In this document: piece after piece, positions 5,581-23,607 of the stretch
How positions within the stretch are numbered: position 1 is the first letter of the stretch
Layout of the letters: every line of letters begins with the position of its first letter
Origin: Candidatus Hermodarchaeota archaeon
Lineage (GTDB): Archaea > Asgardarchaeota > Lokiarchaeia > Sigyniarchaeales > SOKP01
Length of the DNA stretch: 23,607 nt
Assembly: GCA_048885925.1 (NCBI GenBank)
Contig: JBHLLG010000041.1
Location: forward strand, 1-23,607
Reading direction: 5' to 3'
Notes under the pieces: generated by a model
Told to the model about the DNA's origin: nothing
What the model saw: the letters and a program-made list of their open reading frames with translations, nothing else
The model's database searches: none
Translations under genes and position numbers: made by a program

Positions 5581-5597
5581 ATTTACTTAATTTTTTT

Positions 5598-6747: not shown

Positions 6748-6771
6748 ATAAAAACAAATTTGAAACTTTAA

Positions 6772-7716: not shown

Positions 7717-8072
7717 TTTAATCAAATATTAAGTTGTTGAATTAGATGTATAATTCATAATTTACTCAATTAAAAAAGGTTTATCCATAAAACATCCCTT
7801 TTTTACTAATTGAATTGATATAGAAAAAACCGAACTACTTTTTAAAATACTTTTAGTTTATAATTTTGATCATTTGTTTTAAAAAAATTAACAAGTGAAA
7901 TGAAAAGCGACTATTCTCTATTAACAAAAGAAGTATATAGAATATTGGATCTTTTTATAGATTCTTTAATTGTGTAATGCAACTTTATTGAGAGATACAT
8001 CTAGAGGTTTTTATATTATATTAGTCTCTATTTAATTACAATCCAATTTTATAATAAAAGAAGGTTTTAATT

Positions 8073-8579
8073 ATGGGAAAAGGTAGTAGTATTATTGCAG
8101 TAATTGCTCTAATCATTGGTCTTGGCGCAGTAAGTTTTATTATATATGACAATTTTATTGCCAGTTCTCCTGTATCACCAGCAGAAAATCAGTGGTATGA
8201 TTCCTCTACAACTGTGTTATACATGCCAGCAAGTGAAGCCTGGGGAACTATTTCTAGCATATCTATAGACTTTAACGTTAGTTCAGGACAAAATGTTTAT
8301 TTTTCATTTATGACTGAAATAAATTTTGATGATAGCTCTGCTCCCGATAGTTATGTCGAAATTCATTTTGAAGTAGATGGCTTTATGTGGTCTCAACCTC
8401 GACTTTATGTAAGAAGATATAATATTGCTTCTGCTCATGGCTTACGCATGTCTGCATCATTACAGCATTATAACACAACGATGACTTCAGGAATTCATAC
8501 TGTTACTATGATATATAAGGGAAATAGTACTGCTGATTCAGTTAGACCTTGTTCTTTATTTGTTCAAACTTTTAATTAA
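8073..8579 (+). CDS. Hypothetical protein with N-terminal membrane anchor/signal and predicted beta-rich extracellular domain
   Basis: Hydrophobic IIAVIALIIGLGAVSFII followed by Ser/Thr-rich alternating beta-like segments; AAGGT upstream; T-tract after the stop. Confidence 0.75.
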   Translation: MGKGSSIIAVIALIIGLGAVSFIIYDNFIASSPVSPAENQWYDSSTTVLYMPASEAWGTISSISIDFNVSSGQNVYFSFMTEINFDDSSAPDSYVEIHFEVDGFMWSQPRLYVRRYNIASAHGLRMSASLQHYNTTMTSGIHTVTMIYKGNSTADSVRPCSLFVQTFN

Positions 8580-8589
8580 TTTTTTTTTT
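8580..8589 (+). terminator. Oligo-T archaeal terminator candidate
   Basis: Run of about 10 T immediately after the stop of 8073..8579. Confidence 0.4.
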
Positions 8590-8810
8590 ATATCCTCTCA
8601 AATTCAGGATTTAAATTAGCACTAGTTATTATGCGCCCGATTATTCAAATAAATTTAATATAATTCATAATATAATCAAATAAAAAGGATTATTCCATAT
8701 CTTCTCATTTTCAGCACATAATTTCATTATGGGAAAAACTAATATACTTTTCTATATACCTTTAAAATAATTTTCTCAAAAAAAAAATCAGAGTTGGAAA
8801 GGTGTAAAAT

Positions 8811-9998
8811 TTGAAACGAGATCCTGTTGGTTTTTTGAAACAAGAAATGACTGAATTGCGGGACAACAATCTAGAATGGATTATACGATACCTTGAAGAA
8901 GGTTCGAAACCACACAGCACAGTAGATGGTAAAAAAGTCTTAATGTTGAACACTAATAACTATTTAGGACTTGCAACACATCCAAAAGTAATTCAAGCAT
9001 CTATAGATGCCACCAAAAAATATGGGGCTGGTGCTGGAGCTGTGCCCGTTATCGCAGGTTCTTTTGATTTAACAAAGCAATTCGAGAAAAAATTTGCTGA
9101 ATTTAAAGAAGTTGAGGCCTCGATTCTTTGCCAAACTGGGTTTGCAGTTAATTCGGGACTAATTCCTATGCTTGTTGGAAAACTTGATATTGTAGTCTCA
9201 GATGAGTTAAACCACGGTTCTATTATTGATGGTGTAAGATTATCTGGTGCTAAGCGAATTATATATAAACATTGCGATGTTGGTGACATGGAAAAGCAAT
9301 TAAAGGAAGCTGAAAAAGAAGGAGCAAGAAGGATTTGTATAATAACTGATGGAGTTTTCAGTATGGATGGTGATATAGCGCCATTAGATAAGATCGCTGA
9401 AGTTGCTGAAGATTTTGGAGCAATGATTTTTGTTGATGATTGTCATGGAGAAGGTGTTTTAGGTAATGGCCGAGGAATTGTTGCCCACTTTAATCTACAG
9501 GGAAAAGTTCATGTAGAGGGTGGATCTATGAGTAAAGGATTTGGTGTTTTTGGAGGTACTGTAGCTGGGTCAAAAGATTTAATTGAATTTTGTGCGAATA
9601 AGAGTAGAACTTATTTACTTAGTACCGCCCATCCTCCAGGTATAGTAGCGGCTAATACTGCATCTATTGAAGTTGTTGAAAGTGAACCAGAGCATGTAAA
9701 AAAAGTCTGGGAACATACAAATTACTTTAAAAAAGAAGTTCAGAATATGGGGTACAATACTGGAAATTCTCAAACACCTATTATTCCTTTAATTATAGGA
9801 GATCCTGGTAAAGCTCAAGAGTTAGCTAGGATTCTTTTTGAAGAAGAAAATATCTATGGGACCCCAATTGTATTTCCAATGGTAGCTAGAGAATTATCTC
9901 GAATTAGAGTACAGATGAATGCCTTGCTTACAAAAGAAGATTTAAACATGGCACTTACTTCAATTGAAAAAGTAGGAAAAAAATTAGATATTATATAA
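8811..9998 (+). CDS. kbl: Glycine C-acetyltransferase (2-amino-3-ketobutyrate CoA ligase), PLP-dependent AONS/KBL family
   Basis: NNYLGLA, SDELNHGSIIDG, ITDGVFSMDGD, DDCHG, SMSKGFG (PLP lysine) and RIRVQ motifs; TTG start with AGGTG RBS. Proximity to tdh favours kbl over bioF. Confidence 0.82.
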   Translation: MKRDPVGFLKQEMTELRDNNLEWIIRYLEEGSKPHSTVDGKKVLMLNTNNYLGLATHPKVIQASIDATKKYGAGAGAVPVIAGSFDLTKQFEKKFAEFKEVEASILCQTGFAVNSGLIPMLVGKLDIVVSDELNHGSIIDGVRLSGAKRIIYKHCDVGDMEKQLKEAEKEGARRICIITDGVFSMDGDIAPLDKIAEVAEDFGAMIFVDDCHGEGVLGNGRGIVAHFNLQGKVHVEGGSMSKGFGVFGGTVAGSKDLIEFCANKSRTYLLSTAHPPGIVAANTASIEVVESEPEHVKKVWEHTNYFKKEVQNMGYNTGNSQTPIIPLIIGDPGKAQELARILFEEENIYGTPIVFPMVARELSRIRVQMNALLTKEDLNMALTSIEKVGKKLDII

Positions 9999-10026
9999 AT
10001 TTTCTTTTAATTTTTTTATTTATTTC

Positions 10027-10611
10027 TTAGAGTGGTTTAGCTAAAATTGCTTTAACTCTTAATTGATCGAATAGACTTGTAGGCATTGTTTTAATTAGAC
10101 ATACCGTATCTGCTCCACGTCCAGTTCCAGCAATACATATGATATCTTTTTCTATATTACTAATTAATCCTGCATCAGCCACCATTGTAGCAATCTCGAT
10201 GCATACCTTTATCCCTTGACTAAAAAGAGTGCGAAAATATTTTGCCATTATCTCTACGGGACCCCATTGCTGTAATGAAATTCTCATACTACGTTCTGGA
10301 CCTGCTAAAGCATGAGTACCAATAAAGAACTTCATTCCTTTATTTTTAAGACTTGTAATTTTTTCTTCTGGAAACTCCTGTCTCTTATTTACACCGGCAA
10401 AATAATAAGAATGTGTTACTACAATCAGATTATAGTCAGTTGGATTGAAAATTTCAAGTGCTTTTTCAGCAGTCATACCAGTTGTACTAGCCATAACAAT
10501 ATCTTTAATACCAAATTGATTTGCATATTTTTGTGCAATTTCTAGTGCTTTTTTAGTGTTATGCGGGCCACCCTCCTCAAAATAAGTGACTTCAATTTTA
10601 AGATCAGTCAT
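10027..10611 (-). CDS. Pyruvate kinase C-terminal-like alpha/beta domain protein (MTH1675-like)
   Basis: YFEEGGPHNT, VMASTTGMTA, VVTH, FSQGIKVCIEIATMVADAG and AGTGRGADT motifs typical of this archaeal family. Confidence 0.8.
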   Translation of the reverse strand: MTDLKIEVTYFEEGGPHNTKKALEIAQKYANQFGIKDIVMASTTGMTAEKALEIFNPTDYNLIVVTHSYYFAGVNKRQEFPEEKITSLKNKGMKFFIGTHALAGPERSMRISLQQWGPVEIMAKYFRTLFSQGIKVCIEIATMVADAGLISNIEKDIICIAGTGRGADTVCLIKTMPTSLFDQLRVKAILAKPL

Positions 10612-10804
10612 ATTACATCATACTTATTAATTTTAACAGTTAAAATATAATTTTTTTATTAAGATAAAATACGATTATACTTAAATGATTATTATTGAGT
10701 TTAAAGTTGCTCTAAATAAAGGTTAAGATAGTTTTAAAAAGATCAAAATTTAAATAGATTTAACTATATTTTTTGTAAATTTAATAACAAACATGGGATA
10801 TCAT

Positions 10805-12256
10805 ATGAGTGAAAGAAAAGTATCTTTAAAAGAGAAAATACTATTTGGGACAAACGCTTTTCCAGATCAAATTTGAGTGAATTATAACGTCACTAAAGAT
10901 CAATTAACATACCAAGCGTTTACGATCTATGTTTTTACTTTTTATTTTGCAGTTGTAGGTCTTTCAATGCTTGAAATGTGGATTGGATTCGTTTTATGGG
11001 GTATTTGGAATATGTTTAACGACCCATTACTTGGAGCATTAAGTGAGAAAACTAAGCAGAAAGGGAAATTAGGAAAAAGAAAGTTTTATTTAATTATATC
11101 TTTTATTCCCTTAGCGTTGATAATGATTTTTCTTTTTACAGTACCTGCCAATTTTAAATTCTGGTATTTTATATTCATTATCTTTACTTTTGAGTTCTTT
11201 TACACAATGTTTTCAGTAAATACTAATGCTGTATTCCCAGAAATGTTTCCAACAGAAAAACAAAGAGGAGAAGTAAATGTTTTTATAAAAATTTTTACTA
11301 TGATTGCAGTAATATTTGCATCATTAATTCCAACTATTATTGTATCTCCCTCTTTGGTTCCTTTACTTGATCCAGGGGATCCAGGTTATGCTGCAGAAGT
11401 TGCTGACATTAATTTTAAATATATAGTCTCAGGAGTTGTTCTAGCTATAATAATATTGATCATGGCCGTATTATTCATATTCTTTGGGGTAAAAGAAAAG
11501 GAAGAGCAATTAATTGATTTTCAAAAACGACCAGGGTTCTTCGCATCATTGAAAATTACATTCTCAAACCGAACGTTTATAAAATTCACACTAGGAAATA
11601 TGCTTATTTGGTATTGCTTTAATGTATTATTAACTGTATTTCCACTTTATTCCGTTTATGTTCTTGGAAGATCTGAAGGAGCCCTTTTAATTGGAATTAC
11701 TTTAATGTTAGCACTTCTTTCTGCTGCTTTTCTTATGCCCATTCAAGCAAGGATTAGAAAAAAATATGGTACTCGTAAAGGCTTGATGATTGGCTTAGCA
11801 ATATGGATAGTCACATTATTTCCATTAGTTTTTCTATCAAACAATGAAATAAGTAGAACATTATCATTTTTTGTTTTCATATCGATAGGATTTGGATTAT
11901 CAGCAGCGCTATTTTTTATTGATATTATTCATGGTGATGTAATTGATCAAGATGCACTTAATTTTGGTGTAAAAAGAGCAGCGAGTTATTATGGAGTAAA
12001 TGCTTTTATCCATCGCTTTTCAATGATACTTGGAATTACAACTATTTATATCATATTTTCAGGAACTGGATGGAGTAGATATGTACCAGTCGTTGCTGAT
12101 CCATTATTAAGAGAAATAGGTATAAAAGCTTTGATGTTTCTGTTTCCTTCAATAGCACTCATTGGATCGCTCCTTTTTTTCAAATTTTACGATTTACACG
12201 GTGAAAAACTCGAATGGGTAAGAGAGGAACTAGAAAAGCATCCTGAATTAAAATAG
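10805..12256 (+). CDS. GPH/MelB-like (MFS_2) transporter interrupted near the 5' end by a 33-nt insert with an in-frame TGA
   Basis: ATG 10805 (or in-frame ATG 10793) gives MSERKVSLKEKILFGTNAFPDQ, a typical GPH N-terminus, in frame with the 10877 ORF. NDPLLGALSE, about 12 TMs and DVIDQD...KRAASYYG motifs. TGA at 10874-10876. Confidence 0.85.
10864..10903 (+). repeat. 7-bp direct repeat AGATCAA (10864-10870 and 10897-10903) around a hairpin
   Basis: Read directly from the sequence. Confidence 0.9.
10871..10903 (+). other. Candidate bulge-helix-bulge (BHB-type) intron / 33-nt insertion
   Basis: GATC(10865-68) pairs with GATC(10898-901), each followed by a 3-nt bulge (AAA, AAT). Inner stem TTT(G)AGTGA/TCACTAAA. 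Removing 10871-10903 yields ...CCA GAT CAA TTA ACA... (PDQLT) with no stop. Confidence 0.55.
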
Positions 12257-12305
12257 AAATGAAATTTTTTTTTCAATTTTTTTATATTAGATGGTAAATT
12301 TATCT

Positions 12306-13235
12306 CTAATTTAAATCTAACATTTTACGAGTTTCATCTAATGTTGCTGGTTTTCTCCCAATTTCATTTGCTAATCGAACCATTCTTTCTACTAATTGGG
12401 CATTACTCTTAACAAGTTCACCCTTTTGATAATATACTGTATCTTCAAGACCAGTTCTAATATTACCACCCATACTCATTGCGATCATTGTAGTTCTAAG
12501 ATTATATCTCCCTATAGTAACAACTTGCCATGTCGATCTTTTAGGAAGTAACTCAACTATATTCAAAAGATTTCTAACAGTAGCAGGTGCACCACCTTTT
12601 ATACCAAGTACAATACTGAAATGAAGTTTCTCATTTTTTTGAAAAACGCCCTTATCGATTAGTTCCATAATATTTGCCATATGGCTTATATCATATACTT
12701 CAATTTCAATACCAGCACCAATTTTTTTACATCCATTCACAAATTTTTTATTAAAATTAATGGGATTATTGAAAATTGAATTTGTTTCCATACCCCTCAT
12801 ATTAGTTCTAAACTCAAAAGTACCAGCATTTATAGTAAACATATCAGGTCGAGGATCTATATTTAATAAATTAAGTCTTTCCTCTAATGTAGCCATTCTA
12901 AGCGCTTGACCATATCTCCTTCCTGATTTACTTACTTTAACTCCATATTCTAAACGAGCTCCAATTCCATTTCCAATTTGAGTAATAATTGGACACTTTT
13001 CTTTTATTAATCGTACTGTTTTGTTATATATGTTAAGATCTGCTGTCGCTAAGCCATCCTCACCCCTTACATGAATATGACACACTGTAGCACCAGCTTC
13101 ATAACATTCTAATGCATCTTTTGCTTGTTCTTCAGGAGTGATTGGTAAATTAGGATTTGACCACTTTCCATGCGCACCTCCAGTAATAGCAGCAGTTATA
13201 ATTACTTTCTCATCAGATAATAAATTTGGCTTCAT
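12306..13235 (-). CDS. Beta-keto acid cleavage enzyme (BKACE/DUF849, Kce-like)
   Basis: IITAAITG, PNLPITPEE, AGATVCHIHVR (HxH), EIEVYD and GGNIRTGLEDT...SNAQLV motifs. Confidence 0.92.
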   Translation of the reverse strand: MKPNLLSDEKVIITAAITGGAHGKWSNPNLPITPEEQAKDALECYEAGATVCHIHVRGEDGLATADLNIYNKTVRLIKEKCPIITQIGNGIGARLEYGVKVSKSGRRYGQALRMATLEERLNLLNIDPRPDMFTINAGTFEFRTNMRGMETNSIFNNPINFNKKFVNGCKKIGAGIEIEVYDISHMANIMELIDKGVFQKNEKLHFSIVLGIKGGAPATVRNLLNIVELLPKRSTWQVVTIGRYNLRTTMIAMSMGGNIRTGLEDTVYYQKGELVKSNAQLVERMVRLANEIGRKPATLDETRKMLDLN

Positions 13236-13327
13236 AATTATCTTAATCTATCTATATCAATTTTTATATAATTACAAAATACTCCATTTATAATTTTATA
13301 ATAATTTACTTCATTTAATTTTAGTTT

Positions 13328-14167
13328 TTACTTTTTCTTCCATGTATAGAAACCTACACCTGTTTTCATTCCAAGTTTCCCATTATCAACCATTTCCTTA
13401 AGTTTGTCAGGTGGTTTATCTCTAGGATCACCACTTTCATGATAATAACTCATTTGGACTGCATAAACAGTGTCTAAACCAATACCATCCATTAAAACAA
13501 AAGGTCCCATTTTCATACCTGTAAAAGTCTTCCACGCTAAATCTATAGTTTCAATATCAGCATAATCTCCTGCCCAAAGATTTAAAGCTTCTCGTCTTGT
13601 AGCATGCCACATTCTATTAAATACAAATCCATGAGATTCTTTTTTTAATACAATTGGATGACATTCAATACTTTCTATCCATTTTTTACCAATTTCAAAT
13701 ATTTCATCGCTGGTTTTTGTGCCTCGCATAATATCAACCATTGGACGTCGAGGAATTGGGGGATAAAAATGAAGATTCAAAACTTTATCTTTTCTTTCAA
13801 CAACGCCTTCCAACTTAGAAACTGAAATTGAAGAACTATTCGTTGAGATTATAGCATTTTTAGGCGCAATTCTATCAATCTCAGAAAAAATTTTTTTTTT
13901 GAGTTCAATACTTTCGGGAATTGCTTCGATAACTAAATCTGCATCTTTAACTGTTTCTTCAAGCTCATTGTAATAATGGACATTATCAATTAATTCGTAT
14001 TTTTTATTCCGTTTTAATACTCCATTGATATAGTTTTTTGCCTCTTCCAATATTTCTAAATTTATATCAAAAATATTTACATTATAATTGTGTAGAGCTG
14101 TGATTGCTGCTATCTGTTTTCCTGTGAAACCAGCACCAATTACCGACACTTCTTTAATTTCGCTCAT
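13328..14167 (-). CDS. 3-hydroxyacyl-CoA dehydrogenase family protein
   Basis: VIGAGFTG, DLVIEAIPE, STNSSS, LHFY, GFVFNR, MGPF..MDGIGLD and GKLGMKTGVGFY motifs. ATG at 14167 is preferred over TTG at 14176. Confidence 0.9.
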   Translation of the reverse strand: MSEIKEVSVIGAGFTGKQIAAITALHNYNVNIFDINLEILEEAKNYINGVLKRNKKYELIDNVHYYNELEETVKDADLVIEAIPESIELKKKIFSEIDRIAPKNAIISTNSSSISVSKLEGVVERKDKVLNLHFYPPIPRRPMVDIMRGTKTSDEIFEIGKKWIESIECHPIVLKKESHGFVFNRMWHATRREALNLWAGDYADIETIDLAWKTFTGMKMGPFVLMDGIGLDTVYAVQMSYYHESGDPRDKPPDKLKEMVDNGKLGMKTGVGFYTWKKK

Positions 14168-14362
14168 ATTATTCAATTTCCATATTTTTTCATTATCTTA
14201 GTATTATTCTCTATATCATTTGAAGGTTCATAGATAATATTTAAATTGTGTAAGATTTCAGTTAATCATTAAAAATTTCTAAAGAATTTATAGAAATAAT
14301 TTAAATGATGAGATTAATAATTAGAAATAACAATAAAGAATTAAAAGTGAATAATTTTAAAA

Positions 14363-14809: not shown

Positions 14810-15889
14810 ATTCTTTTTTTATCAGCTGAAGGTTGGACTATTGGGGTCGTAAGATTGATTTTTGTCATATGGGGTATTATATGGGGTCCAATTTTGATCT
14901 ACCAAGGAAAAAAATCTAATGTTAAGCTTCTGATCTATTGGGGTATTTTCACGATCGGTGTTTATCTTACACTATTGGGAAGCGCGGTTGATTTTTTAAC
15001 TATCCTCATAACTGGCCAAAATATTAGTGGATTTTTATATATTCTCTTAAGTTGGCCCAATGTAGGTATTAATGTGTTTTTTGTAGTTTTTGTTCTAACT
15101 GAGCTTCTAGCACCAAAGTTTAAATGGTATTTTCTCTCAACTTATATAATCATGCTTCCATTTTATCAATTATCTCTTTTCTTAAATACATGGGATAACG
15201 TAATTTTAACATTTCCTATAATACCCGGTGAAGAAATAATTAACGATACTGTTTTGGGTTGGGTAGGGAATGCACTTTCGCGTGGACTCAATGAACTTAT
15301 ATTTTTAGGAGGTTTTGGTTTAATCTATAAAGGGATGCAATCTAAAGGTATAATTAGAAAAAAATACATCTATTTGGCAATAGCTATTTTCTTACTCTAC
15401 GTTCCTGCGATTTTTGATGCTCTTTTAGATATCCCGATACCTATTTTAGCTATAGTAAGTATCATCCAATTAGGATCTACATGGTTTAGTTATTTAGGAT
15501 TACGAAAAGAACCAGAAAGACGTGAAAAGAAAGTTAAAGAAGAAGTGAAAATCACTGATTCACTTTTTCGAATAATTCAAAGACCCGATCAAATTACCGA
15601 AGAAGAAGTTACCTATTATCGAGAGCAGAAAATTTGCGTGATTTGTAAAGGGAAGGTTGCCGGATTCAACATCTTTCTATGCCCAAACTGTGAAGCCTTA
15701 TATCATGAAGATTGTGCTAGAACGCTTTCTGATTTAGAAAATGCTTGTTGGGTCTGTAATCAACCGATTGATGAAAAAAAACCGACGAAACCCTTTAAAA
15801 TTGTTGAAGAAAAAAAGTTTGGTGAAAAATTAGTAAAAGAAGAGGAGACTTCAAAAATGGATAAAAAAATTTCTCAAGGAAAGGAGTGA
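14810..15889 (+). CDS. Multi-pass (about 7 TM) membrane protein with C-terminal C4HC3 RING-like zinc finger; putative membrane E3 ligase
   Basis: Hydrophobic helices followed by CVIC-x11-CPNC-x4-HEDC-x10-CWVC. Frame is open upstream of TTG 14855 to ATT 14810, 9 nt after GGAGG; start uncertain. Confidence 0.75.
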   Translation: MLFLSAEGWTIGVVRLIFVIWGIIWGPILIYQGKKSNVKLLIYWGIFTIGVYLTLLGSAVDFLTILITGQNISGFLYILLSWPNVGINVFFVVFVLTELLAPKFKWYFLSTYIIMLPFYQLSLFLNTWDNVILTFPIIPGEEIINDTVLGWVGNALSRGLNELIFLGGFGLIYKGMQSKGIIRKKYIYLAIAIFLLYVPAIFDALLDIPIPILAIVSIIQLGSTWFSYLGLRKEPERREKKVKEEVKITDSLFRIIQRPDQITEEEVTYYREQKICVICKGKVAGFNIFLCPNCEALYHEDCARTLSDLENACWVCNQPIDEKKPTKPFKIVEEKKFGEKLVKEEETSKMDKKISQGKE

Positions 15890-15897
15890 CTTAAACC

Positions 15898-16353
15898 ATG
15901 GCTACTGAAATTTCGAAAGGATTAAAATGGACCTTTTTTATTCATTTTGTTGTAACTCTATTATTTGGAGTTGTCTTTACTATGCTCGTTACTATGCTTG
16001 ACCAAGTGTTTGACCTCGTCAACTATCTAAAGATTATTGGCTGGCCTTATTTTGATCCAGTGATTTCAAATTTACTTGGATTTGCTTTTTTTGCACTTGC
16101 ATTATCTTCTTTTATAGCGTGGAAAGAGACCAAATGGGAAAAAGTGAAGATAATTGTGTTAATGGAAATTGCTTGGTTTATGGGTGGTACCTATGTAATG
16201 TTCTGGTCTCTGTATTCGGGGATGATGGCAATCCCAGGAGTTCCGGAATTACCTCCAATGGGGTGGATATATCTCATAATGTTTAGCGCTTTCTTAATTG
16301 CATTTATCGTTTTCTATATCCAACATGAAAAGGAAAAAAAAGAATCAGACTAA
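15898..16353 (+). CDS. Hypothetical 4-TM membrane protein
   Basis: Four hydrophobic segments; GGAGTGA RBS overlapping the upstream stop; 8-nt gap suggests co-transcription. Confidence 0.8.
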   Translation: MATEISKGLKWTFFIHFVVTLLFGVVFTMLVTMLDQVFDLVNYLKIIGWPYFDPVISNLLGFAFFALALSSFIAWKETKWEKVKIIVLMEIAWFMGGTYVMFWSLYSGMMAIPGVPELPPMGWIYLIMFSAFLIAFIVFYIQHEKEKKESD

Positions 16354-16360: not shown

Positions 16361-17161
16361 CTAAGATTCTTTTTCCAGCTGTTTTTTCAAAAATTCAATA
16401 TTTTCCTTAAGAGTTTCCGCGATGGGATCATCAGTAATATTTAATCTCTCTAAAATCTGAATAGAATCTTCAAACAATTTTAATGCTTCTGGAAATTGAG
16501 AGCGCTTATAATACAATCCAGGAATATCAAAAAATTTATATTTAATACATTGAATTTGTGTTATTAAAATCCAGAAACATATCATCGTTGTTAATATCCA
16601 TTCTATTAATGGATTACGAGTGACTAAAAGAATTATCAAGAAAAAACCTATAAAAAAACCATAAAATGCTAAATATTTTTTAAATCTTGGACCGTGATAC
16701 ATTTTAGCCTTAGGCACATAATACATTAAGATGCTATAAAGAACAATATAAATTGATGAACCTACAAAACTAACCCCAGCAACAAAAAAATGAAAAGCAT
16801 TAAAGAAATACCAATATATTTCATCTGGGTTTTCAATTGGAGTTATTCCAACTAGGGCAATACAGACAGAAGTAAAAATGGATACTCCTGTTGCTAATCT
16901 TCTGATACTGTCTTTAATATTAATCAATTCTCTTTCAAGGTATATATAAAAGGGGATTAATAACGAACCTGTTACAACAAAACAAATACTAAATAACGAT
17001 TTCATTTCTCCCTTTGATAACGAACTTACTGTATTTTCTAACGGAGTATAATCCGGAGTAAGTAAAGCTGTTATCGGTAAAAAAATAATAATAAATAAAA
17101 CACCACCGAGACCAAAATATACTTCCATTTTTGATTCTTTATTTTTTGCCATTCTTGCCAC
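16361..17161 (-). CDS. DUF998-like membrane protein with helical C-terminal tail
   Basis: PDYTPLENTVSSL motif, LVGITP, a conserved-type His and IEW; five to six TMs; TPR-like tail (EALKLFEDSIQILERL). Start may be ATG 17152. Confidence 0.65.
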   Translation of the reverse strand: MARMAKNKESKMEVYFGLGGVLFIIIFLPITALLTPDYTPLENTVSSLSKGEMKSLFSICFVVTGSLLIPFYIYLERELINIKDSIRRLATGVSIFTSVCIALVGITPIENPDEIYWYFFNAFHFFVAGVSFVGSSIYIVLYSILMYYVPKAKMYHGPRFKKYLAFYGFFIGFFLIILLVTRNPLIEWILTTMICFWILITQIQCIKYKFFDIPGLYYKRSQFPEALKLFEDSIQILERLNITDDPIAETLKENIEFLKKQLEKES

Positions 17162-17375
17162 TTTTTAAAATAATAAGTTAAACTAATTTTGTAAAAATTT
17201 CACCTTATTGTATCTAATTATTACCTAAGATTTTATATAATTTGTGTTCAAATATGAATGATCTAACACAGAATAATTTCAAAAAATTAAAAGTTTAAAA
17301 TTTTAAAAGATAAAATTTATATTGAAATAAGTTTGATCTTTATAAATAGGTGAAAGTATCAAATATAATTATTAA

Positions 17376-17957
17376 ATGTTTAAAATTATGAATGACACTA
17401 AAGATAAATTTACTTTTAAAGTTACAGTTATCGGAGATGGGGCAGTAGGAAAAACATCTCTCATAAGAAAGTTTACTAAGGGTGGATTTCAAGAAGAATA
17501 TATTCAAACAATAGGAGCCCAATTTTCTGAATATAATGCGGAAATTGAGGGTGATAGTTCTAAATTATTTTTCTGGGATATAGCAGGTCAAGATACATTC
17601 CATTTTTTGCGCCCTGCTTTCTATAAAGCGAGTGCCGCTGCGATAATAGTTTACTCCCTTGAAGAAAATGATTTAGGGCGAGAAAGTTTTAAACATCTCT
17701 CTGCATGGTATAACGAAATAAAAAAATTTTGTGGTGATATTCCTGTTGTATTATTTGGAAATAAGGTTGACTTGATAGATGAAACCACTCTAAATGATGA
17801 GAGTGCCTTAAAATTTATAGAGAAACATGAGTTATTAGGATATTTTAAAACATCAGCAAAAACAGGACAAGGGGTTAATGATGCATTTCAAAAAATTATT
17901 AGAGAATTATATCATAAATACAAGGGAATCTATTCAGAAATAGATCATTCTAAATAG
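17376..17957 (+). CDS. Rab-like small GTPase (Ras superfamily)
   Basis: G1 GDGAVGKTS, G2 TIG, G3 WDIAGQ, G4 NKVD, G5 SAK; no C-terminal Cys prenylation motif. Confidence 0.93.
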   Translation: MFKIMNDTKDKFTFKVTVIGDGAVGKTSLIRKFTKGGFQEEYIQTIGAQFSEYNAEIEGDSSKLFFWDIAGQDTFHFLRPAFYKASAAAIIVYSLEENDLGRESFKHLSAWYNEIKKFCGDIPVVLFGNKVDLIDETTLNDESALKFIEKHELLGYFKTSAKTGQGVNDAFQKIIRELYHKYKGIYSEIDHSK

Positions 17958-18120
17958 AATTTTCCTCTCTTTTAGAATTTTTATTTTCAATTTCCTCTAC
18001 AATATTGAAATATAGAATTTTATCATTCGGAGGTTTTTGCTTTAAAATCTTTTTATCCTTAGAATAGATTATTTTGGGATTTGTCTCATTGGGTGTTATT
18101 TTTTTGTTTTTTTCATTCAA
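17950..18120 (-). CDS. Possible 56-aa Lys/Asn/Glu-rich small protein (not in the ORF track)
   Basis: Manual translation from TTG 18120 to TAG 17950: MNEKNKKITPNETNPKIIYSKDKKILKQKPPNDKILYFNIVEEIENKNSKREENSI. Strong purine skew on the minus strand; fills the intergenic gap. Confidence 0.4.
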   Translation of the reverse strand: MNEKNKKITPNETNPKIIYSKDKKILKQKPPNDKILYFNIVEEIENKNSKREENSI

Positions 18121-18220
18121 AATTTATCCACAGTTATGAAATTTAATTTATCATAATCATTTTAATTAATATTATTATCTTTTATTAAATTATTAAATTA
18201 ATTACAATAGGGTAAAAAAA

Positions 18221-20860
18221 ATTTTAAGAAAAATATTTATTATTGGTCCAGGAGGAATTCTTTGTTATTCGAAGAATTTCTTTGAACAATCAGATATTGA
18301 TGAGGGCGTAATTAGTGGATTTCTTACAGCTATAAGTAATTTTGCTAAAGAAATTAAAGGAGGTAAAGTTAAAGCTCTTATTTTCAAAAATTTTAATTAT
18401 ATATATTCATACTCTACTGAATTTGATTGTATCTTTGTAATCGTAATTGATAAAGAAGATTTAGAAGAAGAAGCGCGCATTAAAGTGGAATTAATGAAAG
18501 ATGAGTTTATCAGAAAGTATAAACCATACTTACAAAAATGGACTGGTAATGTAAGTGTTTTTGAAAGTTTTAATGAATTTGTAGAGGAAAAAATATTTAT
18601 TCCTCCAAAGATCTTATTAACTGGAGAAAAAGGAGTTGGAAAAACAACAATTATGAACTTTTTTGAAGGAGAAACGGTAATAGAGTTAAGTGATGATTTA
18701 GTTGAAATTATACAAAAACCAATTAACCTTATTGACTTTAAAGGGATAAAACAATGCACTATACGAGAAATAGATTTAGAAGAATTAGTAAAAAATTCAA
18801 ATTTTTATAAAAATTTATTAAATTCAGTAGATATTGTTCTAATTGTTACAAACTCAGGTGCAAGTAATCTAGGGAGAACTAAGAAACTGCTTTCATCATT
18901 AAAACCTATAATTCATAAAGCAGACTTTTATATACTTGCAAACTTCCAAGATTTAAAAGATAGTGCATTTGAACCAGATAAAATACAAGAAATGTTTGAT
19001 ATAAAGACATATGGTTTTTCTTCAAATAAAGAAGAATCTAAAGAAGAATTTGATTTTATTTTAAAGGAAATATTACAAACATCTATTTTAGATAAAGAAG
19101 AAGAGAGACGTAATTTTGCTGTCCAAGAAGTGTCAGAAGATCAAGATGAAGTTATTAAAGCAAGACAACTCGAAGAAGCAGTTGAGATAGAAGTGGATTA
19201 TAATGATATATGGGAACAAATAGAGAATGCAAGAATTTTGGAAAAGAGCGGAGATCATCTTGGAGCCGCGGAAAAATTCTCTTGTGCTGCTTCTCAATTC
19301 AAAGATTTATGTTCACATGCAATTCTTGAACAAGATAGAGAAGAATTAAACGCAATATATTACTTATGTAAGGCATGGGAATGTATGGAATTAGCTGAAG
19401 AATACGATAATCCTGATAAGTTTATAGAAGCAGTCGAGTTATTTAATAAGGCTAGTGAACTTTTTATTGACAATAAAGCAAAATCATTAGCGTTAGGAAA
19501 TTCTGCTTTTTGTCAAGCATTAGAACTAGGTTCTAAATTCGATAAGACAAGTGAAACATCTATCAAAGCAGAATATTATCCAAAGATTAAAATGATGCTT
19601 AGGAATGCAGCTAATTTGTATCGAAAAGGTGGATTTGAAAGTGAAGCAGATTGGGCGCTTGCTACTTCTACATATTTTGATGCCACGTGGTATATCATCA
19701 GAGCAGATGAAGAACTAAACCTTGATGAAAAGAAGAAGCTTCTAGAAATTGGTTCTGGTATGTTTAAATCAGCAGCAGAACTTTTTGGAAAAGCAGGATA
19801 TAAGGATAAAGAAAAAGAGGTTTTAGATCGCTTAGATTTGGTTGATAAAGAAGAAAAAATCATAATTTCTGCCCTTAATACCATCAGCGAACCGTTAATT
19901 TCAAAAAGTACAATAGATATCTTAGCACCTTCATTTCCACAAAAAGAAGAAGCATTAAAAATCAAAGAAAAAAAAGATAAAAAGAAGAAATATAAATTAA
20001 TTTATAGAGATCTACTTAGAGAATACCCTAAAATTCAAAAAAGGGAATTTAGAGTTGGAGTAGCTCAAATAGGAGTGTCTGTTACAGGAGATCTCATGAA
20101 AGAATTTTATGAAGAAAAAACTTCAGGTTTATTAGGACTTCGGGAAGAAAAAGTTGAATTTTTAATAGATAAAGTTAGAAATATGATTGAAAATGCCCAT
20201 AATAATAATGTAGATGTTTTAATATTCCCAGAAATGGCAATAGATCTCAATTATGGTAAATTTTTAGAAATAATATCAGATTTAGCTAATGCTTTTGATA
20301 TGTATATTATTCCTGGTTCATTCCATAATCTAGAAACTAAGCAAAATATTAGCATTGTAATTGGACCCGATGGAATTGTATGGGAACAAGAAAAACATAC
20401 TCCTGCAATTATACATTTTGAAGATAAAAAATTCGAAGAAGGGATAAAAGTAGATACATATCCAAGACAAACTATTGTATGTAATACTGAGTTTGGCAGA
20501 ATCGCTATAATAATATGTAGAGACTTTCTTGATATGGATTTACGCGTAGAATTAAAAAATTTTGAACCTGCTGTAGACCTTATTTTTAATCCCGCATACA
20601 CACCAGTTACAGCTGATTTCAAGGCAGCTCATTTTGATGCCCGAAGATCCATTTATGCTTATTGTTTTTTTGTTAATATAGGTGAGTATGGTGAATCTCT
20701 TATATACACCCCAGAAAAAGAGAGAATCGAAAGAATAATACCACCAAAAGAAGAAAATTTAATTTATAAGGATATCGATCTCTTTAAGCTTCGTTCAGAA
20801 CGTAAGAAATGGGAAAAAGAAAAAAAAAGTAAACGTCAATTTATCCAAAGTACTCGATAA
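18221..20860 (+). CDS. Fusion protein: longin-like domain + degenerate small GTPase + helical (TPR/SNAP-like) repeats + carbon-nitrogen hydrolase (nitrilase) domain
   Basis: Frame is open from 18197. The segment upstream of GTG 18485 reads ILRKIFIIGPGGILCYSKNF...ISGFLTAISNFAKEI (longin-like). P-loop GEKGVGKTT and G4-like NFQD. Nitrilase triad in IFPEM, QEKH and IICRD. Confidence 0.82.
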   Translation: MLRKIFIIGPGGILCYSKNFFEQSDIDEGVISGFLTAISNFAKEIKGGKVKALIFKNFNYIYSYSTEFDCIFVIVIDKEDLEEEARIKVELMKDEFIRKYKPYLQKWTGNVSVFESFNEFVEEKIFIPPKILLTGEKGVGKTTIMNFFEGETVIELSDDLVEIIQKPINLIDFKGIKQCTIREIDLEELVKNSNFYKNLLNSVDIVLIVTNSGASNLGRTKKLLSSLKPIIHKADFYILANFQDLKDSAFEPDKIQEMFDIKTYGFSSNKEESKEEFDFILKEILQTSILDKEEERRNFAVQEVSEDQDEVIKARQLEEAVEIEVDYNDIWEQIENARILEKSGDHLGAAEKFSCAASQFKDLCSHAILEQDREELNAIYYLCKAWECMELAEEYDNPDKFIEAVELFNKASELFIDNKAKSLALGNSAFCQALELGSKFDKTSETSIKAEYYPKIKMMLRNAANLYRKGGFESEADWALATSTYFDATWYIIRADEELNLDEKKKLLEIGSGMFKSAAELFGKAGYKDKEKEVLDRLDLVDKEEKIIISALNTISEPLISKSTIDILAPSFPQKEEALKIKEKKDKKKKYKLIYRDLLREYPKIQKREFRVGVAQIGVSVTGDLMKEFYEEKTSGLLGLREEKVEFLIDKVRNMIENAHNNNVDVLIFPEMAIDLNYGKFLEIISDLANAFDMYIIPGSFHNLETKQNISIVIGPDGIVWEQEKHTPAIIHFEDKKFEEGIKVDTYPRQTIVCNTEFGRIAIIICRDFLDMDLRVELKNFEPAVDLIFNPAYTPVTADFKAAHFDARRSIYAYCFFVNIGEYGESLIYTPEKERIERIIPPKEENLIYKDIDLFKLRSERKKWEKEKKSKRQFIQSTR

Positions 20861-20899
20861 CAATTAAAATGAATTAAAAAGAGTTATACTTTAAAAAAT

Positions 20900-21394
20900 A
20901 TGTCAATAGAGGAAGATTACATATTTCCAGTATATATTTATGAAAAAGTTATTGAACGAATAAAAGAATTAAGTAGCAATTTTGAAAAGGAGATCTTTGG
21001 TTATTTGGTGGGAAATCTCTTAAAATGGGAGGGAAAAACCTATATTATAATTAAAGAACAATTATTTATTGAAGGTGCTATTCATAGTAATAAATTTTCA
21101 ACTTCTCAAATCACGGGACAAGCCGGAGAATATGAAAAAGAATTTAAAAAGTTAAAAAATGAGGAAAAGGATGAATATTTGAGAATTTTAGGATGGTGGC
21201 ATTCTCATCCTAATTTTGGGTGTTTTTTATCATCAACAGATCTTAATACTCAAGAATTTTTCTTTCCTGAGTCATATCAAGTAGCATTAGTCATAGATCC
21301 AATTAGAGATGAATTTAAATTTTTTACCTTAGATAAAGCATCAAATAAAAAGTATAGGGCAGTAAGTAATGCAATAATATCATCCAAACCCTAG
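20900..21394 (+). CDS. JAB1/MPN+ (JAMM) metalloprotease, Rpn11-like deubiquitinase
   Basis: KEIFGYLVG glutamate, GWWHSHPNFGCFLSSTD (HxH-x7-S-x2-D) and ALVIDP. Confidence 0.93.
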   Translation: MSIEEDYIFPVYIYEKVIERIKELSSNFEKEIFGYLVGNLLKWEGKTYIIIKEQLFIEGAIHSNKFSTSQITGQAGEYEKEFKKLKNEEKDEYLRILGWWHSHPNFGCFLSSTDLNTQEFFFPESYQVALVIDPIRDEFKFFTLDKASNKKYRAVSNAIISSKP

Positions 21395-21460
21395 GTGTAA
21401 ATTTTAATTTATTAAGAATGGTTCTAAAATTAATAATGAAAAATAAAGTTTCATGAATAA

Positions 21461-22345
21461 ATGACAGAAAAAAAAGATAAATCGGATATAAGAATAATAA
21501 GTTTTGAGTCAATAGATACAGATAAATATGATCGCCAAAAGCGTATTGCAGGATGGGATCAATCAAGGGTTTCTAATGCTACTGTAATGGTAATAGGTGT
21601 TGGGGCTACTGGAAATGAATTAGTAAAGAACTTAGCATTAACAGGAATTGGTAAATTTATTATTATTGATTACGATATTATTGAAAAATCAAATCTTAAT
21701 CGCTGCGTTTTGTTTAATATGAGAGATGATATTGAAGGTAAATACAAGGTTGATGTTGTAAAAGAATCGGTTGAAATTCTAAATCCTGATGTAAAAATCA
21801 TAACTTGTAAAAGTAAATTGAATGATATTGATAGAAATTTATATAAAAAATCAGATGTAATCTGTTCTTGTGTGGATAACATCGAAGCACGATTAGAAGC
21901 AAATAATTATGCACATTATTATGGTATCCCTTTTATTGATTCAGGGATAGATGAATATTTTGGATCTATTCAAGCAGTATATTCAGAAATTAAAGATGCT
22001 CCATGCCTTCAATGTGGAATTTCTGATAAAGATTTAGATTTAATGTGGAAGAAATTTTCATGTACTGGACAAGAAATTAGTTCTGAAGATGGAGAAACAA
22101 CTAAAAAAATTGCCACTATTATAAGCACCACTTCGATTATTGGAGGAATTCAGACTCAACAAGTCATTAAATTTATCTTGAATTTAGATCACTTTAAAGA
22201 ATATGGGAATTGGGATTCTCAAATAGGAGAGCCTCTCATTGGAAAACAAATAAATTATAATGGACTTATAAATAAGTTTAATATTATAGAAAAGTTAAAA
22301 GATCCTAATTGCTGGACTTGTTCATATAAAAAAACTATTAACTAA
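21461..22345 (+). CDS. Ubiquitin-activating E1-like enzyme (ThiF/MoeB/UBA family)
   Basis: YDRQ, VIGVGATG, DYDIIEKSNLNR, CVDNIEAR, Zn ligands CLQC and CWTC, and candidate catalytic Cys in FSC. Confidence 0.92.
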   Translation: MTEKKDKSDIRIISFESIDTDKYDRQKRIAGWDQSRVSNATVMVIGVGATGNELVKNLALTGIGKFIIIDYDIIEKSNLNRCVLFNMRDDIEGKYKVDVVKESVEILNPDVKIITCKSKLNDIDRNLYKKSDVICSCVDNIEARLEANNYAHYYGIPFIDSGIDEYFGSIQAVYSEIKDAPCLQCGISDKDLDLMWKKFSCTGQEISSEDGETTKKIATIISTTSIIGGIQTQQVIKFILNLDHFKEYGNWDSQIGEPLIGKQINYNGLINKFNIIEKLKDPNCWTCSYKKTIN

Positions 22346-22448
22346 ATATACCTAAATATTAAATATATAGACTTAATTATGAATAAAATATAAGCAAAAA
22401 TGTAATCTTTAAATTTAATTTAATCAATATTTTTATTTGATAGAAATT

Positions 22449-23015
22449 ATGCCAGAATTGCCGTTTGAAATATGGAAAGATCGTATTAATAACGAAATTA
22501 AAAATTTAGAACATCTAAATGTAATTGAGAGAAATTCAATAGTTTGGCATGATAATAATGTAGAATTTTTGATAAATATTAGAGCTATTGGGTTTATATT
22601 AGGTGATTATCAAAAAGATGTAAATTTGATCCCTCAAAAATCTCATCGTATCTTTTTAAAAATTAATAGATCCTTTCCTTATCCTGGAGGACTCGATTTT
22701 TCTTGGTATTCAAACATTTTCCATCCTAATATTCATCCTGTTGAATTAATTTACTCTAAAGTAAGGGGTACGGGATATATATGTTTAAATGTTCTGAAAC
22801 AATGGTCTAGACTATCAGATCTAGAAACTACAGTAAAGGCACTACAAAAATTAGTAGAAAATCCTAATCCAGAAGATCCACTCAAATATGATATATGTCT
22901 TGAAGCTGCTGAGTTTTTCAAAAAAACTAGTATAGAAGATCTTAAAAAGCAATATAATATTGAAGAAATAGAAGAAGAACAGGATAAAGATGAAATAATT
23001 ATATTGGATGATTAA
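22449..23015 (+). CDS. Ubiquitin-conjugating E2 enzyme (UBC fold)
   Basis: FPY-P, IFHPNI, GYICLNVLKQW (catalytic Cys), NPNPEDPL and an acidic tail. ATG 22449 is preferred over TTG 22437. Confidence 0.92.
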   Translation: MPELPFEIWKDRINNEIKNLEHLNVIERNSIVWHDNNVEFLINIRAIGFILGDYQKDVNLIPQKSHRIFLKINRSFPYPGGLDFSWYSNIFHPNIHPVELIYSKVRGTGYICLNVLKQWSRLSDLETTVKALQKLVENPNPEDPLKYDICLEAAEFFKKTSIEDLKKQYNIEEIEEEQDKDEIIILDD

Positions 23016-23128
23016 AGTTTATAATTAACTCTTTTTCTATAAATATTATATTATAAAAGTAAAGAAAGTTTATGTTTTAATCAAAAATTCTTATCTTAAT
23101 AAAACTATATAATCTTTAGATAAGAATT

Positions 23129-23389
23129 TTATAGATTTCCGCCAATTACTCTTGCCCATAGTGATAATTTATCATTTTCTTGAAGCCCAAATTTATGTAC
23201 TGCATCTTCAATTGTTATTGTACTGGGTAATTCTTTCTCATGAAGAACTAAAGTATATGAGCGTTGCTCCGCACTTATGATTCCCATATGTTTAATAACT
23301 ATATCTATAATACGTTCAATTGGATGGTGTTCTTTAACATCTAACTTTATTAACTTACCTGTTCTTGTATCTTCAACCGATATTCTCAT
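23129..23389 (-). CDS. Ubiquitin-like protein precursor (C-terminal GG-NL)
   Basis: Beta-grasp pattern (MRISVEDTRTGKLIKLDV...GLQENDKLSLWARVIGG), diglycine followed by two extra residues; adjacent to E1, E2 and JAB. Confidence 0.88.
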   Translation of the reverse strand: MRISVEDTRTGKLIKLDVKEHHPIERIIDIVIKHMGIISAEQRSYTLVLHEKELPSTITIEDAVHKFGLQENDKLSLWARVIGGNL

Positions 23390-23451
23390 TAAATATCATC
23401 TTCTAATTGATTAATTTTTTTTTTACACTTAAATATATTCAAATATCTTAA

Positions 23452-23607
23452 TTACTTTTTACCTTTTTCATCTAATTTTTCCAAATCTTCAAATTCTTCA
23501 GTTAATTTAAAAGGTTTTGAAGGTTTAGATTTATCAATTGGTTCATTACACACCCAGCAAGCATTTTCTGCATTGGATAAAGCACGTGCACAGTTTTCAC
23601 AGTATAA
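23452..23607 (-). CDS. 3' end of a RING-like zinc finger protein (5' part outside the window), paralogous to the tail of 14810..15889
   Basis: Manual translation: LYCENCARALSNAENACWVCNEPIDKSKPSKPFKLTEEFEDLEKLDEKGKK*, closely matching LYHEDCARTLSDLENACWVCNQPIDEKKPTKPFK. Confidence 0.85.
   Translation of the reverse strand, partial: LYCENCARALSNAENACWVCNEPIDKSKPSKPFKLTEEFEDLEKLDEKGKK

Follow-up and report, generated by a model that had tools for sequence, protein, structure and literature searches.

Among the closest known counterparts of the protein discussed here are DRT1 (UG1) and UG5/DRT11, in which a C-terminal nitrilase is the output of a multidomain protein and is preceded by an α-helical repeat. 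According to the available part of its report, DRT1 is made up of a reverse transcriptase (RT), an α-helical repeat, and a nitrilase with an oligomeric core, and its conserved C-terminus forms a domain-swapped lid, the substrate being unknown (PMC13275509). For UG5, the available text states that the nitrilase cysteine is needed for defense (PMC13436386). Here, we describe an archaeal protein encoded by a fused gene of 879 codons at positions 18221-20860 (stop included) of the forward strand in a 23,607-nucleotide (nt) stretch of DNA from Candidatus Hermodarchaeota archaeon (assembly GCA_048885925.1, contig JBHLLG010000041.1, positions 1 to 23,607), the whole of which is called the window. The gene encodes four modules, a longin domain and an Arf-like GTPase domain, together referred to as LG, followed by a helical domain and a carbon-nitrogen (CN) hydrolase of the nitrilase superfamily, together referred to as HelCN. 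A conserved extreme C-terminus is common to the fused protein and DRT1. The fused protein differs from DRT1 and UG5 in that it has no RT, carries LG as its N-terminal partner, is archaeal, and lies in the context of a ubiquitin-like operon, and only its nitrilase part aligns to DRT models. On balance, we favor the view that it is the LG adaptor of an accessory ubiquitin-like protein (Ubl) cassette, bearing an effector-type amidase that was joined to it in a single fusion.

A second point of comparison is the eukaryote-like ubiquitylation operon of archaea, which in Caldiarchaeum contains ubiquitin, E1, E2, a small RING protein, and Rpn11 (PMC5654768). Measured against that description, the window cassette likewise brings together a Ubl ending in GG, a ThiF-type E1, a UBC-type E2, and a JAMM protease. 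It differs in its divergent E2 (42 bits), in its multi-pass membrane proteins with a C4HC3 finger that are candidate E3s, in the LG adaptor and Rab-like GTPase found in the cluster, and in the presence of a separate canonical ubiquitin locus in the genome. Asgard fusions of longin and GTPase domains ("Rag-like") have been noted in general terms, and most genes for eukaryotic signature proteins have been placed outside conserved neighborhoods, in the available portion of Liu et al. (bioRxiv 10.1101/2020.10.19.343400). In the literature searched, neither the fusion nor an LG-JAB-E1-E2 operon was found to be described; supplements such as the asCOG tables of Liu et al. could list the family. Of the publications that came up, one treats nitrilases as part of nitrogen metabolism in Heimdallarchaeia and another is a defense-system census.

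Asgard Ubl systems and longin/GTPase proteins are usually discussed as separate sets of "eukaryotic signature" components, but here they stand in one conserved operon, the adaptor of which has, in one lineage, become part of the same polypeptide as an enzyme of a type used by bacteria as a defense effector. This provides a testable handle on the role of accessory Ubl cassettes in the closest archaeal relatives of eukaryotes and also on the substrate of defense-type nitrilases.

Linkage to the ubiquitin-like cassette

A sequence-only reading of the window had described a protein of about 879 residues ending 39 nt before a JAB gene on the same strand and had proposed that it might be a component of an Asgard ubiquitin pathway, with unconserved linkage to ubiquitin genes in relatives named among the observations that would count against this. 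The arrangement is as described, with JAB starting at 20900, and the linkage is conserved. Long fused frames (777-890 residues) are present in 20 of 399 Asgard genomes, all of them in one family (f1) and in two of its genera, and 20 relatives' loci with the fused gene were compared by placing homologs of the window proteins with tblastn. In nine of the 20 loci, the fused gene is directly followed by JAB-E1-E2, with a divergent Ubl gene, as in the window. Three loci contain the fused gene, a RING-like gene, and then a free LG gene heading JAB-E1-E2-Ubl at about 2.5 kilobases (kb) from the end of the fused gene, while two have Ubl and a RING-like gene directly downstream. A RING-like gene alone is seen in a further four loci, one of which is cut by a contig end, and the remaining two are too short to tell. 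The fused gene lies beside cassette genes in 18 of 18 informative loci, and JAB-E1-E2 is found within about 3 kb in 12 of the 18. In the 10 loci where JAB is directly next, including the window (39 nt), the gap between the fused gene and JAB is 31-64 nt.

Which half of the protein carries this linkage is apparent from loci in which the two occur apart. The LG half (residues 1-305) was matched at E ≤ 1e-10 in 309 of the 399 genomes and the hydrolase half at E ≤ 1e-40 in 141. In three loci of the same family (L075-L077), two to three tandem copies of free LG stand directly before JAB-E1-E2, with Ubl after. In another family of the same order, in which LG is 40% identical, a single free LG heads JAB-E1 in two loci (L058 and L060) and LG-JAB is seen in a third (L059). 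The free LG of the LG-JAB-E1-E2 operon resembles the fused LG in sequence (46-59% identity), in its degenerate switch, and in its position directly upstream of JAB, the fused protein having another 570 residues that form the helical and hydrolase domains. Fourteen more distant LG homologs (≤33% identity) have no cassette neighbors, except that a single locus contains E1-like and JAB-like matches at a distance of 6-8 kb. None of 10 loci with LG-less hydrolase genes, drawn from the same genome and six others, holds Ubl, JAB, E1, or E2. Because these hydrolase loci are devoid of cassette genes and free LG heads JAB-E1-E2, the ubiquitin linkage is a property of the LG module and not of the hydrolase. 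What stands of the pathway proposal is the conserved link to JAB, E1, and E2. The link follows the LG half, however, which is free-standing as the first gene of the operon elsewhere, and the specific idea of an Nta1-like degron amidase is not supported.

The cassette is of the eukaryote-like kind, with a Ubl carrying a C-terminal GG, an E1, an E2 (UBC fold with its Cys), and a JAMM protease encoded together. Elsewhere in the genome there are a canonical Ub-E1-E2-JAB locus, on contig C4, and a third E2, on contig C40, which makes the window cassette accessory.

Gene model and start codon

The reading frame of the fused gene is open from 18197 to the stop codon at 20858-20860 on the forward strand, an open frame of 887 residues in which the codon at 18221 is ATT, a non-canonical start. 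The first canonical starts in frame are GTG at 18485 and ATG at 18494, with no ATG, GTG, or TTG upstream of them, and a start at either position would remove the longin domain. For want of an earlier canonical start, the listing of open reading frames (ORFs) gives only 18485-20860 (791 residues, GTG). In a DNA alignment, four relatives carry TTG preceded by GGAG at the exact position of the ATT at 18221, and G201, a 93%-identical relative, shares the ATT of the window at the start position. Over the 88 codons ahead of the first canonical start, the window and G201 differ by 15 synonymous and 2 non-synonymous changes, which indicates that the N-terminal part is translated and under purifying selection; over the whole fused gene, the codon differences number 156 synonymous and 67 non-synonymous. 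On the simplest reading of these sequences, the 879-residue product is the sensible gene model, and it would be made from the ATT or a nearby non-canonical start. Orthologs of 868-880 residues start with MILKIFIIGPGG. One extra N-terminal residue in the window relative to the orthologs was considered and dropped, as the DNA alignment shows equal length.

Two observations concern how the gene appears in other genomes. The public annotation of the closest relative, which is 92% identical, begins at an internal Met (P0001, 788 residues), and the longin domain is thus missing from the database entries of the sub-lineage of the window. In locus L057 (G227, contig C65), the ortholog consists of two frames, a 365-residue LG part and a 556-residue HelCN part, which may be a genuine split or an assembly frameshift.

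The longin and GTPase domains

The structure of residues 1-305 was modeled with AlphaFold2 from a 44-sequence alignment, with a mean predicted local distance difference test (pLDDT) score of 82. In the model, residues 1 to about 125 have the secondary-structure order E-E-H-E-E-E-H, the strand-helix order of a longin domain. A structure search with the model matched this region to the longin of VAMP7 (4afi_B, Z 14.2, root-mean-square deviation (rmsd) 2.2, 117 residues aligned), as well as to Sec22 (3egd_C, Z 13.7) and the CPLANE longin subunit (7q3d_C, Z 14.3). Among Pfam models, none for longin or roadblock families matched these residues at E ≤ 0.01; divergent longins are often missed by sequence models. 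Residues from about 126 to 296 form an Arf-like small GTPase fold, with matches to Arf1 (8rsq_A, Z 17.9) and SR-beta (2fh5_B, Z 14.3), and the Foldseek matches of the module include Arf, Arl, Rab, and MglA.

The motifs of the GTPase set the operon-linked LGs apart from their distant homologs. The P-loop, GxxGVGK[TS], is kept in 43 of 44 LG sequences. DxxGQ occurs in none of the 31 operon-linked LGs (17 fused and 14 free), the window carrying IDLEEL in its place, whereas WDxxGQ is found in 13 of 13 distant LGs. Likewise, NKQD is present in all 13 distant LGs, while operon-linked copies have NFQD (28/31) or NMQD (3/31), in which the Asn and Asp are kept and the Lys is lost. The switch I "PT" of the distant LGs is replaced in operon-linked LGs by a longer acidic segment. 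Because none of the operon-linked copies keeps DxxGQ, the LG GTPase is probably not a working switch, and we infer that it binds nucleotide without a hydrolysis-driven cycle. A complex prediction for LG with JAB returned a score of 0.00 and the verdict "no answer", informative neither way.

The helical domain

The structural model of residues 306-879 (HelCN) has a mean pLDDT of 70. It contains a confident α-solenoid at residues ~314-557, with a pLDDT of about 90 over ~328-554. The top PDB matches of the solenoid are Bro1 domains, namely those of Brox (3um3_A, Z 15.1), ALIX (2xs1_A, Z 14.8), HD-PTP (3rau_A, Z 14.8), and yeast Bro1 (1zb1_B, Z 13.9). These matches align 228-239 residues but have an rmsd of 5-7 Å, and a generic TPR protein (3gw4_B) is close at Z 13.7. 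The Pfam BRO1 model matched none of seven helical segments at E ≤ 10, only weak TPR/MIT-type matches being returned, and the language-model neighbors of the domain are TPR/SNAP clusters at 0.76-0.79, below the level of 0.9 that is taken as meaningful. The domain is therefore best described in neutral terms as a TPR-like solenoid, with "Bro1-like" kept as a low-probability lead.

The hydrolase domain

The C-terminal domain matches the α-β-β-α sandwich fold of the nitrilase superfamily. At the sequence level, Pfam CN_hydrolase (PF00795) scores 34.9 bits against a cut-off of 23.2 over residues 656-867 of the 887-residue frame, and 25 of 28 CN-module relatives also match PF00795 at E ≤ 0.001. The best fold match is Nit2 (2w1v_B, Z 17.2, rmsd 3.9, 219 residues aligned, obtained with a model whose second half is of low confidence), and others include nitrilase 4, NitFhit, and β-ureidopropionase. 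A Foldseek search with the whole HelCN model gave generic nitrilase-superfamily matches only, at an rmsd of 7-11 Å owing to the weak model. Three residues, E671 (in FPE), K725 (in EQEKH), and C766 (in ICRD), lie at what we take to be the canonical Glu-Lys-Cys triad positions of the superfamily. They are invariant in 44 of 44 aligned homologs, as is the extreme C-terminus, ...IQSTR. The four-domain architecture and the intact triad, both of which had been recognized in the sequence-only reading, are thus borne out by fold and Pfam matches and by the alignment.

The same reading had pointed to Nta1, the yeast N-terminal amidase, as a member of the superfamily and had named degron generation, deamidation, or deconjugation as possible roles for the enzyme. 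Nta1 has in common with the hydrolase the superfamily fold, Cys-Glu-Lys chemistry, and a tie to ubiquitin-dependent degradation. It is, however, a distant structural match (5b62_A, rank 36, Z 12.1, rmsd 3.7, 211 residues aligned), with at least 20 other nitrilase-superfamily chains scoring higher, up to Z 17.2. There is no affinity between the two at the sequence level, Nta1 being absent among the PDB sequence matches of the hydrolase at E ≤ 1, and the module occurs mostly outside ubiquitin contexts. The top sequence models are instead defense-type nitrilases, and a role like that of Nta1 is not supported. The PADLOC model RTasNitrilase matches 44 of 44 family members (best 4.9e-16), CARF_nitrilase 32, RT_UG5-nitrilase 29, and Drt1a 8, and the top PDB sequence match of the hydrolase is DRT1 (9yfd_A), a weak one at E 0.012 and 18 bits. 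A PDB profile search with the whole hydrolase-family alignment found only a designed repeat protein, which aligned to the TPR part and is uninformative for the hydrolase. The NCBIfam collection provided no family-level name for the fused protein, its paralog, the Ubl, the RING-like protein, or the E2. The hydrolase may act like a DRT effector nitrilase, yet it is not part of a DRT system, since library scans found no RT domain in the fused protein or in the ORFs of the window.

Origin of the fusion

A search of 1.84 billion representatives gave 541 matches at E ≤ 0.001, among which the helical module (query 1-280) and the hydrolase module (query 270-574) each turn up without the other. In 28 proteins scanned for partners of the CN module, MalT-type/TPR_12 repeats were found in 12, an α/β-hydrolase in 6 (one also with AAA_16), β-helix/NosD in 3, a kinase in 2 (one also with Ras), and an Arf-like domain in 1, with no recognized partner in 4. 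Conversely, 40 proteins with the TPR-helical scaffold were scanned for their C-termini, which contain TIR (6), a KaiC-like ATPase (5), Metallophos (2), adenylate/guanylate cyclase (2), and AAA (1), the C-terminal domain of the rest being unrecognized. This exposes a large uncharacterized Asgard family that is made up of TPR (about 700 residues), a helical domain, and a variable C-terminal domain that serves as a swappable effector, TIR members included. Judging from their sequences, the relatives with TIR, cyclase, metallophosphoesterase, and KaiC domains look like an uncharacterized polymorphic effector family.

The members with a hydrolase are uncharacterized proteins of about 1275 residues carrying the name "nitrilase-related carbon-nitrogen hydrolase". 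Their helical and hydrolase domains are 58-67% identical to those of the fused protein and have the same triad and the same ...IQSTR tail. In the fused protein, the N-terminal TPR of about 700 residues is replaced by longin-GTPase, and the fused genes group on a branch of their own, no other member of the TPR-helical family having been found next to ubiquitin genes. Five more full hydrolase copies of about 1280 residues are present in the same genome, four in tandem on contig C1 and one on C7. The C1 array, at about 154800-173900 (L078:8788-20000 and L079:1-7916), consists of five tandem TPR-helical genes, of which four are nitrilase forms of about 1278 residues. The fifth, of 1070 residues, has a zinc finger instead of a hydrolase, with 36% identity over 64 residues to the finger of the membrane RING-like protein of the window (E 3e-10). 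The array is followed, at a distance of a few kb, by a MoxR-type AAA gene and a vWA gene. The combination of the helical module with a C-terminal TIR (TIR_2, in some also ThsB_TIR) is seen in P0162, P0165, P0172, P0186, P0153, and P0164; four of these TIR relatives have the full TPR-helical scaffold, while P0153 and P0164 are shorter (413 and 534 residues).

Quick, unrooted trees were built for both halves. In the HelCN tree, 16 fused sequences make up one side of a branch with a Shimodaira-Hasegawa-like approximate likelihood ratio test (SH-aLRT) value of 100. In the LG tree, 17 fused sequences do so with a value of 96 and have the free operon LGs of their family as neighbors, and the operon-linked LGs form one group apart from the canonical-switch LGs (SH-aLRT 99). 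Both trees are compatible with one fusion event. With midpoint rooting of the HelCN tree, the loci that have both the fused gene and a free LG-JAB-E1-E2 operon belong to the earliest-branching fused group, which makes a history of LG duplication, fusion, and loss of the free copy plausible, in that inferred order.

Proposed function and alternative explanations

The fused protein can be pictured as a cytosolic four-module protein that would have arisen by a single fusion within one family of Lokiarchaeia-type Asgard archaea. Its front half, a longin and an Arf-like GTPase that keeps nucleotide-binding motifs and appears to have lost the catalytic switch, is the conserved first gene of a Ubl cassette. 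The other members of the cassette are the JAB protease, E1, E2, a Ubl precursor ending in GG-NL, membrane RING-like proteins in multiple copies, and the Rab-like GTPase. Its back half was taken from the TPR-helical-effector family, in which the effector slot can be filled by a nitrilase, TIR, metallophosphoesterase, cyclase, KaiC-like ATPase, or RING-like finger. The LG half would replace the TPR "sensor" of the sister proteins and would bring a catalytically active Cys-Glu-Lys amidase to the place of action of the Ubl cassette, or switch it on there; this place is probably the membrane, close to the RING-like proteins and the Rab-like GTPase. In this way, LG could regulate or localize the enzyme and couple it to Ubl conjugation. 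The enzyme is probably oligomeric, and its invariant C-terminal tail may, by analogy with DRT1, be an active-site lid. A protein-amide substrate for the hydrolase is possible, with nothing specific in its favor.

Several observations weigh against this account. JAB-E1-E2 is missing from the DNA examined around the fused gene in 6 of the 18 informative loci. The locus lies amid conserved housekeeping neighbors, which is untypical of fast-evolving defense islands, and the N-terminal TPR of the paralog family is fairly conserved (mean 55% identity), again unlike defense islands. The β-helix/PKD partner of the CN module misfits a purely intracellular effector. A search for public RNA runs that hold 17300-23400 listed none. 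The most conserved half of the hydrolase is badly modeled (pLDDT 39-63 at HelCN residues ~440-540), and the shape of the pocket and the oligomer contacts are unreadable as a result. Finally, the PADLOC nitrilase models score higher than the generic Pfam model, but the two sets of scores, being drawn from different libraries, do not allow a strict comparison, and the tie to DRT1 is weak as a single-sequence match.

Four other explanations compete with the LG adaptor. If the enzyme were a protein amidase of the ubiquitin pathway, controlled by GTPase and longin and acting on N-terminal Asn/Gln degrons in the manner of Nta1 or cleaving or modifying Ubl amides, this would fit a gene that adjoins JAB-E1-E2, probably in one operon judging by the short gaps, and a Cys-Glu-Lys chemistry that is intact and suited to amide bonds. 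It would also fit the detectable structural match to Nta1, a member of the same superfamily, and a Ubl precursor whose C-terminal extension begins with Asn. We nevertheless consider it improbable, as Nta1 lies about 5 Z below Nit2, NitFhit, and β-ureidopropionase, and the hydrolase module (57-69% identity) is found in proteins of about 300 to about 1800 residues with partners as varied as TPR, kinase, STAND-type ATPase, α/β-hydrolase, and β-helix. LG-less paralogs have no cassette genes nearby in any of 10 loci, most genomes run the operon with LG free and without the hydrolase, and the JAB protease is already available for Ubl processing and deconjugation. A role in trafficking appears more improbable still. 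Here, the helical domain would be a Bro1-like module that binds ESCRT-III, and the protein would couple Ubl-tagged membrane cargo, the Rab-like GTPase, and deubiquitylation, as yeast Bro1 recruits a deubiquitinase. The Bro1 domains at the top of the PDB matches, the weak MIT matches in the helical family, and the neighboring membrane RING-like proteins, Rab-like GTPase, and JAB protease all lean this way. Set against them are the high rmsd, a margin of only about 1.4 Z over the generic TPR protein, the fact that arrangements of helical repeats are commonplace below about Z 13, the results with Pfam BRO1 and the language model, and a window with no ESCRT gene. Hardest to credit is an artefact or a decaying gene, that is, a mis-assembly or a start-less pseudogene from which only the 791-residue GTG/ATG product or nothing is made. 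Such a gene could be suspected from the missing ATG, GTG, or TTG between the upstream stop and 18485, from the internal Met of the annotated relative, and from the split gene of G227. However, the same frame of 868-890 residues recurs in 18 genomes on independent contigs, and in two copies cut by contig ends, and neither the excess of synonymous changes before the first canonical start nor the TTG with GGAG at exactly the ATT position in relatives would be expected of it.

The remaining explanation, which is the boldest and which we regard as unlikely, is that the whole cassette is a conflict system of antiviral or abortive-infection type, comparable to bacterial E1-E2-JAB systems. The fused nitrilase would then, on the same tentative footing, be a toxic output, set free once infection is sensed by the Ubl machinery or the LG adaptor. 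The defense-library nitrilase models match every member of the family, and among the domains found in the same slot of the scaffold are TIR, metallophosphoesterase, and cyclase, all of them typical of immune effectors. The CN module is also fused to AAA_16/STAND-type and MalT-type TPR sensors, its paralogs are arranged in tandem, as in the run of five on contig C1, the cassette is an accessory one with a patchy distribution, and E1 and JAB match PADLOC models of the Cap2/Cap3 type. Matches to Cap2/Cap3 are, however, expected of any E1 or JAB, the flanks consist of conserved metabolic genes with no recognized defense genes beside the cassette, and the TPR parts are not hypervariable. Moreover, we know of no counterpart to the membrane RING-like proteins and Rab-like GTPases in known bacterial Ubl defense systems. 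The LG adaptor reading can itself be extended in this direction. The cassette of longin-pseudoGTPase, JAB, E1, E2, Ubl, and membrane RING might be an Asgard immune-type signaling module the adaptor of which is, in this lineage, wired directly to a nitrilase death or defense effector, an extension that we consider speculative and, at present, unlikely. If it is true, archaeal Ubl conjugation would control an innate-immunity effector and would do so with "eukaryotic signature" trafficking parts.

Genes of the window

The features of the window around and within the fused gene are listed in Table 1.

Table 1. Features at the fused locus, with positions in the 23,607-nt window
Feature	Positions	Strand	Basis
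Membrane protein with at least 4 hydrophobic segments (by hydropathy) and a C-terminal C4HC3 RING/PHD-like zinc finger; candidate membrane E3	14855..15889	+	
Small membrane protein with four transmembrane segments (4-TM)	15898..16353	+	Hydropathy
DUF998 membrane protein, divergent from the Ras-like gene	16361..17161	-	Pfam DUF998 5.9e-13
Canonical Ras/Rab-like small GTPase, directly upstream of the fused gene	17376..17957	+	Pfam Ras 1.3e-43
Longin domain, residues 1-125 of the fused protein; ATT at the start position	18221..18595	+	Fold match; start-codon alignment, purifying selection
Arf-like GTPase domain, residues 126-296; P-loop intact, NFQD for NKxD, no DxxGQ, no switch I Thr	18596..19108	+	
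TPR/SNAP-like α-solenoid, residues 314-557, common to the TPR-helical-effector family	19160..19891	+	
Carbon-nitrogen hydrolase domain, residues 605-879; E671, K725, C766, invariant C-terminal ...IQSTR; stop included	20033..20860	+	
JAB/MPN+ metalloprotease, JAMM intact (E31, H101-x-H103, S111, D114)	20900..21394	+	Pfam JAB 8.6e-11, 42.1 bits
ThiF-type E1-like activating enzyme	21461..22345	+	Pfam ThiF 1.3e-45, 155.8 bits
Divergent E2, HPN motif and Cys present; ends in an acidic run, then IIIL-DD	22437..23015	+	Pfam UQ_con 42.2 bits vs cut-off 27
Ubiquitin-like protein of 86 residues ending ...RVIGG-NL, with a 2-residue extension	23129..23389	-	Sequence; conserved in relatives
Second RING-like membrane gene, C-terminal end only, cut by the window end	23473..23607	-	tblastn, 67% identity over 45 residues to the 14855-15889 product

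The JAMM residues of JAB are invariant alignment columns, and the JAB, ThiF, and UQ_con matches are all above the Pfam cut-offs. The 86-residue protein is read from its sequence as a Ubl precursor, with 77-99% identity across the relatives' loci that hold it, and its paralog on contig C71 matches Pfam ubiquitin weakly (1.5e-4). The C4HC3 finger is matched by Pfam zf-RING_16 (3e-4), Prok-RING_1 (4.4e-4), and PHD (2.5e-3), and by C1 models, all of them below cut-offs. RING-like paralogs flank the fused gene or Ubl in 16 of the 20 relatives' loci, and the second RING-like gene is present in full at the matching position in G201 and others. A homolog of the 4-TM protein is found in L045, L053, L055, and L056, directly after the RING-like gene in L053 and L055. 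A DUF998 gene occupies the equivalent position in 13 of the 20 loci, and an ortholog of the Ras-like GTPase (60-87% identity) is directly upstream of the fused gene in 13 of 20. Positions 1-14200 of the window hold ordinary metabolic and transport genes.

The C-terminus of the E2 has a recurring form. In 16 of 16 E2 orthologs, the last residues are an acidic run, then four aliphatic residues, and D/E (e.g., ...DKDEIIILDD). Two of 14 free LG proteins end likewise, in ...DDDIIIIVD and ...DDDITIILN; both are third LG copies (L075:10335-11210 and L076:10235-11110). The fused protein has no such acidic-aliphatic tail. The tail resembles a SUMO-interacting motif and is possibly a docking motif for Ubl.

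A smaller locus of related content is found in the same genome on contig C71 (L080). It encodes a 93-residue Ubl paralog, 65% identical to that of the window, at 8905-9186 (+), with a 338-residue GTPase-helical protein and another RING-like membrane gene at 9173-10189 (-) and 10695-11684 (-). The 338-residue protein is made up of a degenerate GTPase and the first part of the helical domain, with neither longin nor hydrolase, and similar "GTPase+helical" frames of 320-430 residues are present in many relatives. Elsewhere in the window and unrelated to the fusion, an ORF of 255 residues at 5598-6368 (-) belongs to the histone-deacetylase family. Its Pfam match falls in two stretches, the best covering 5-166 of 298, and the protein may be truncated or divergent.

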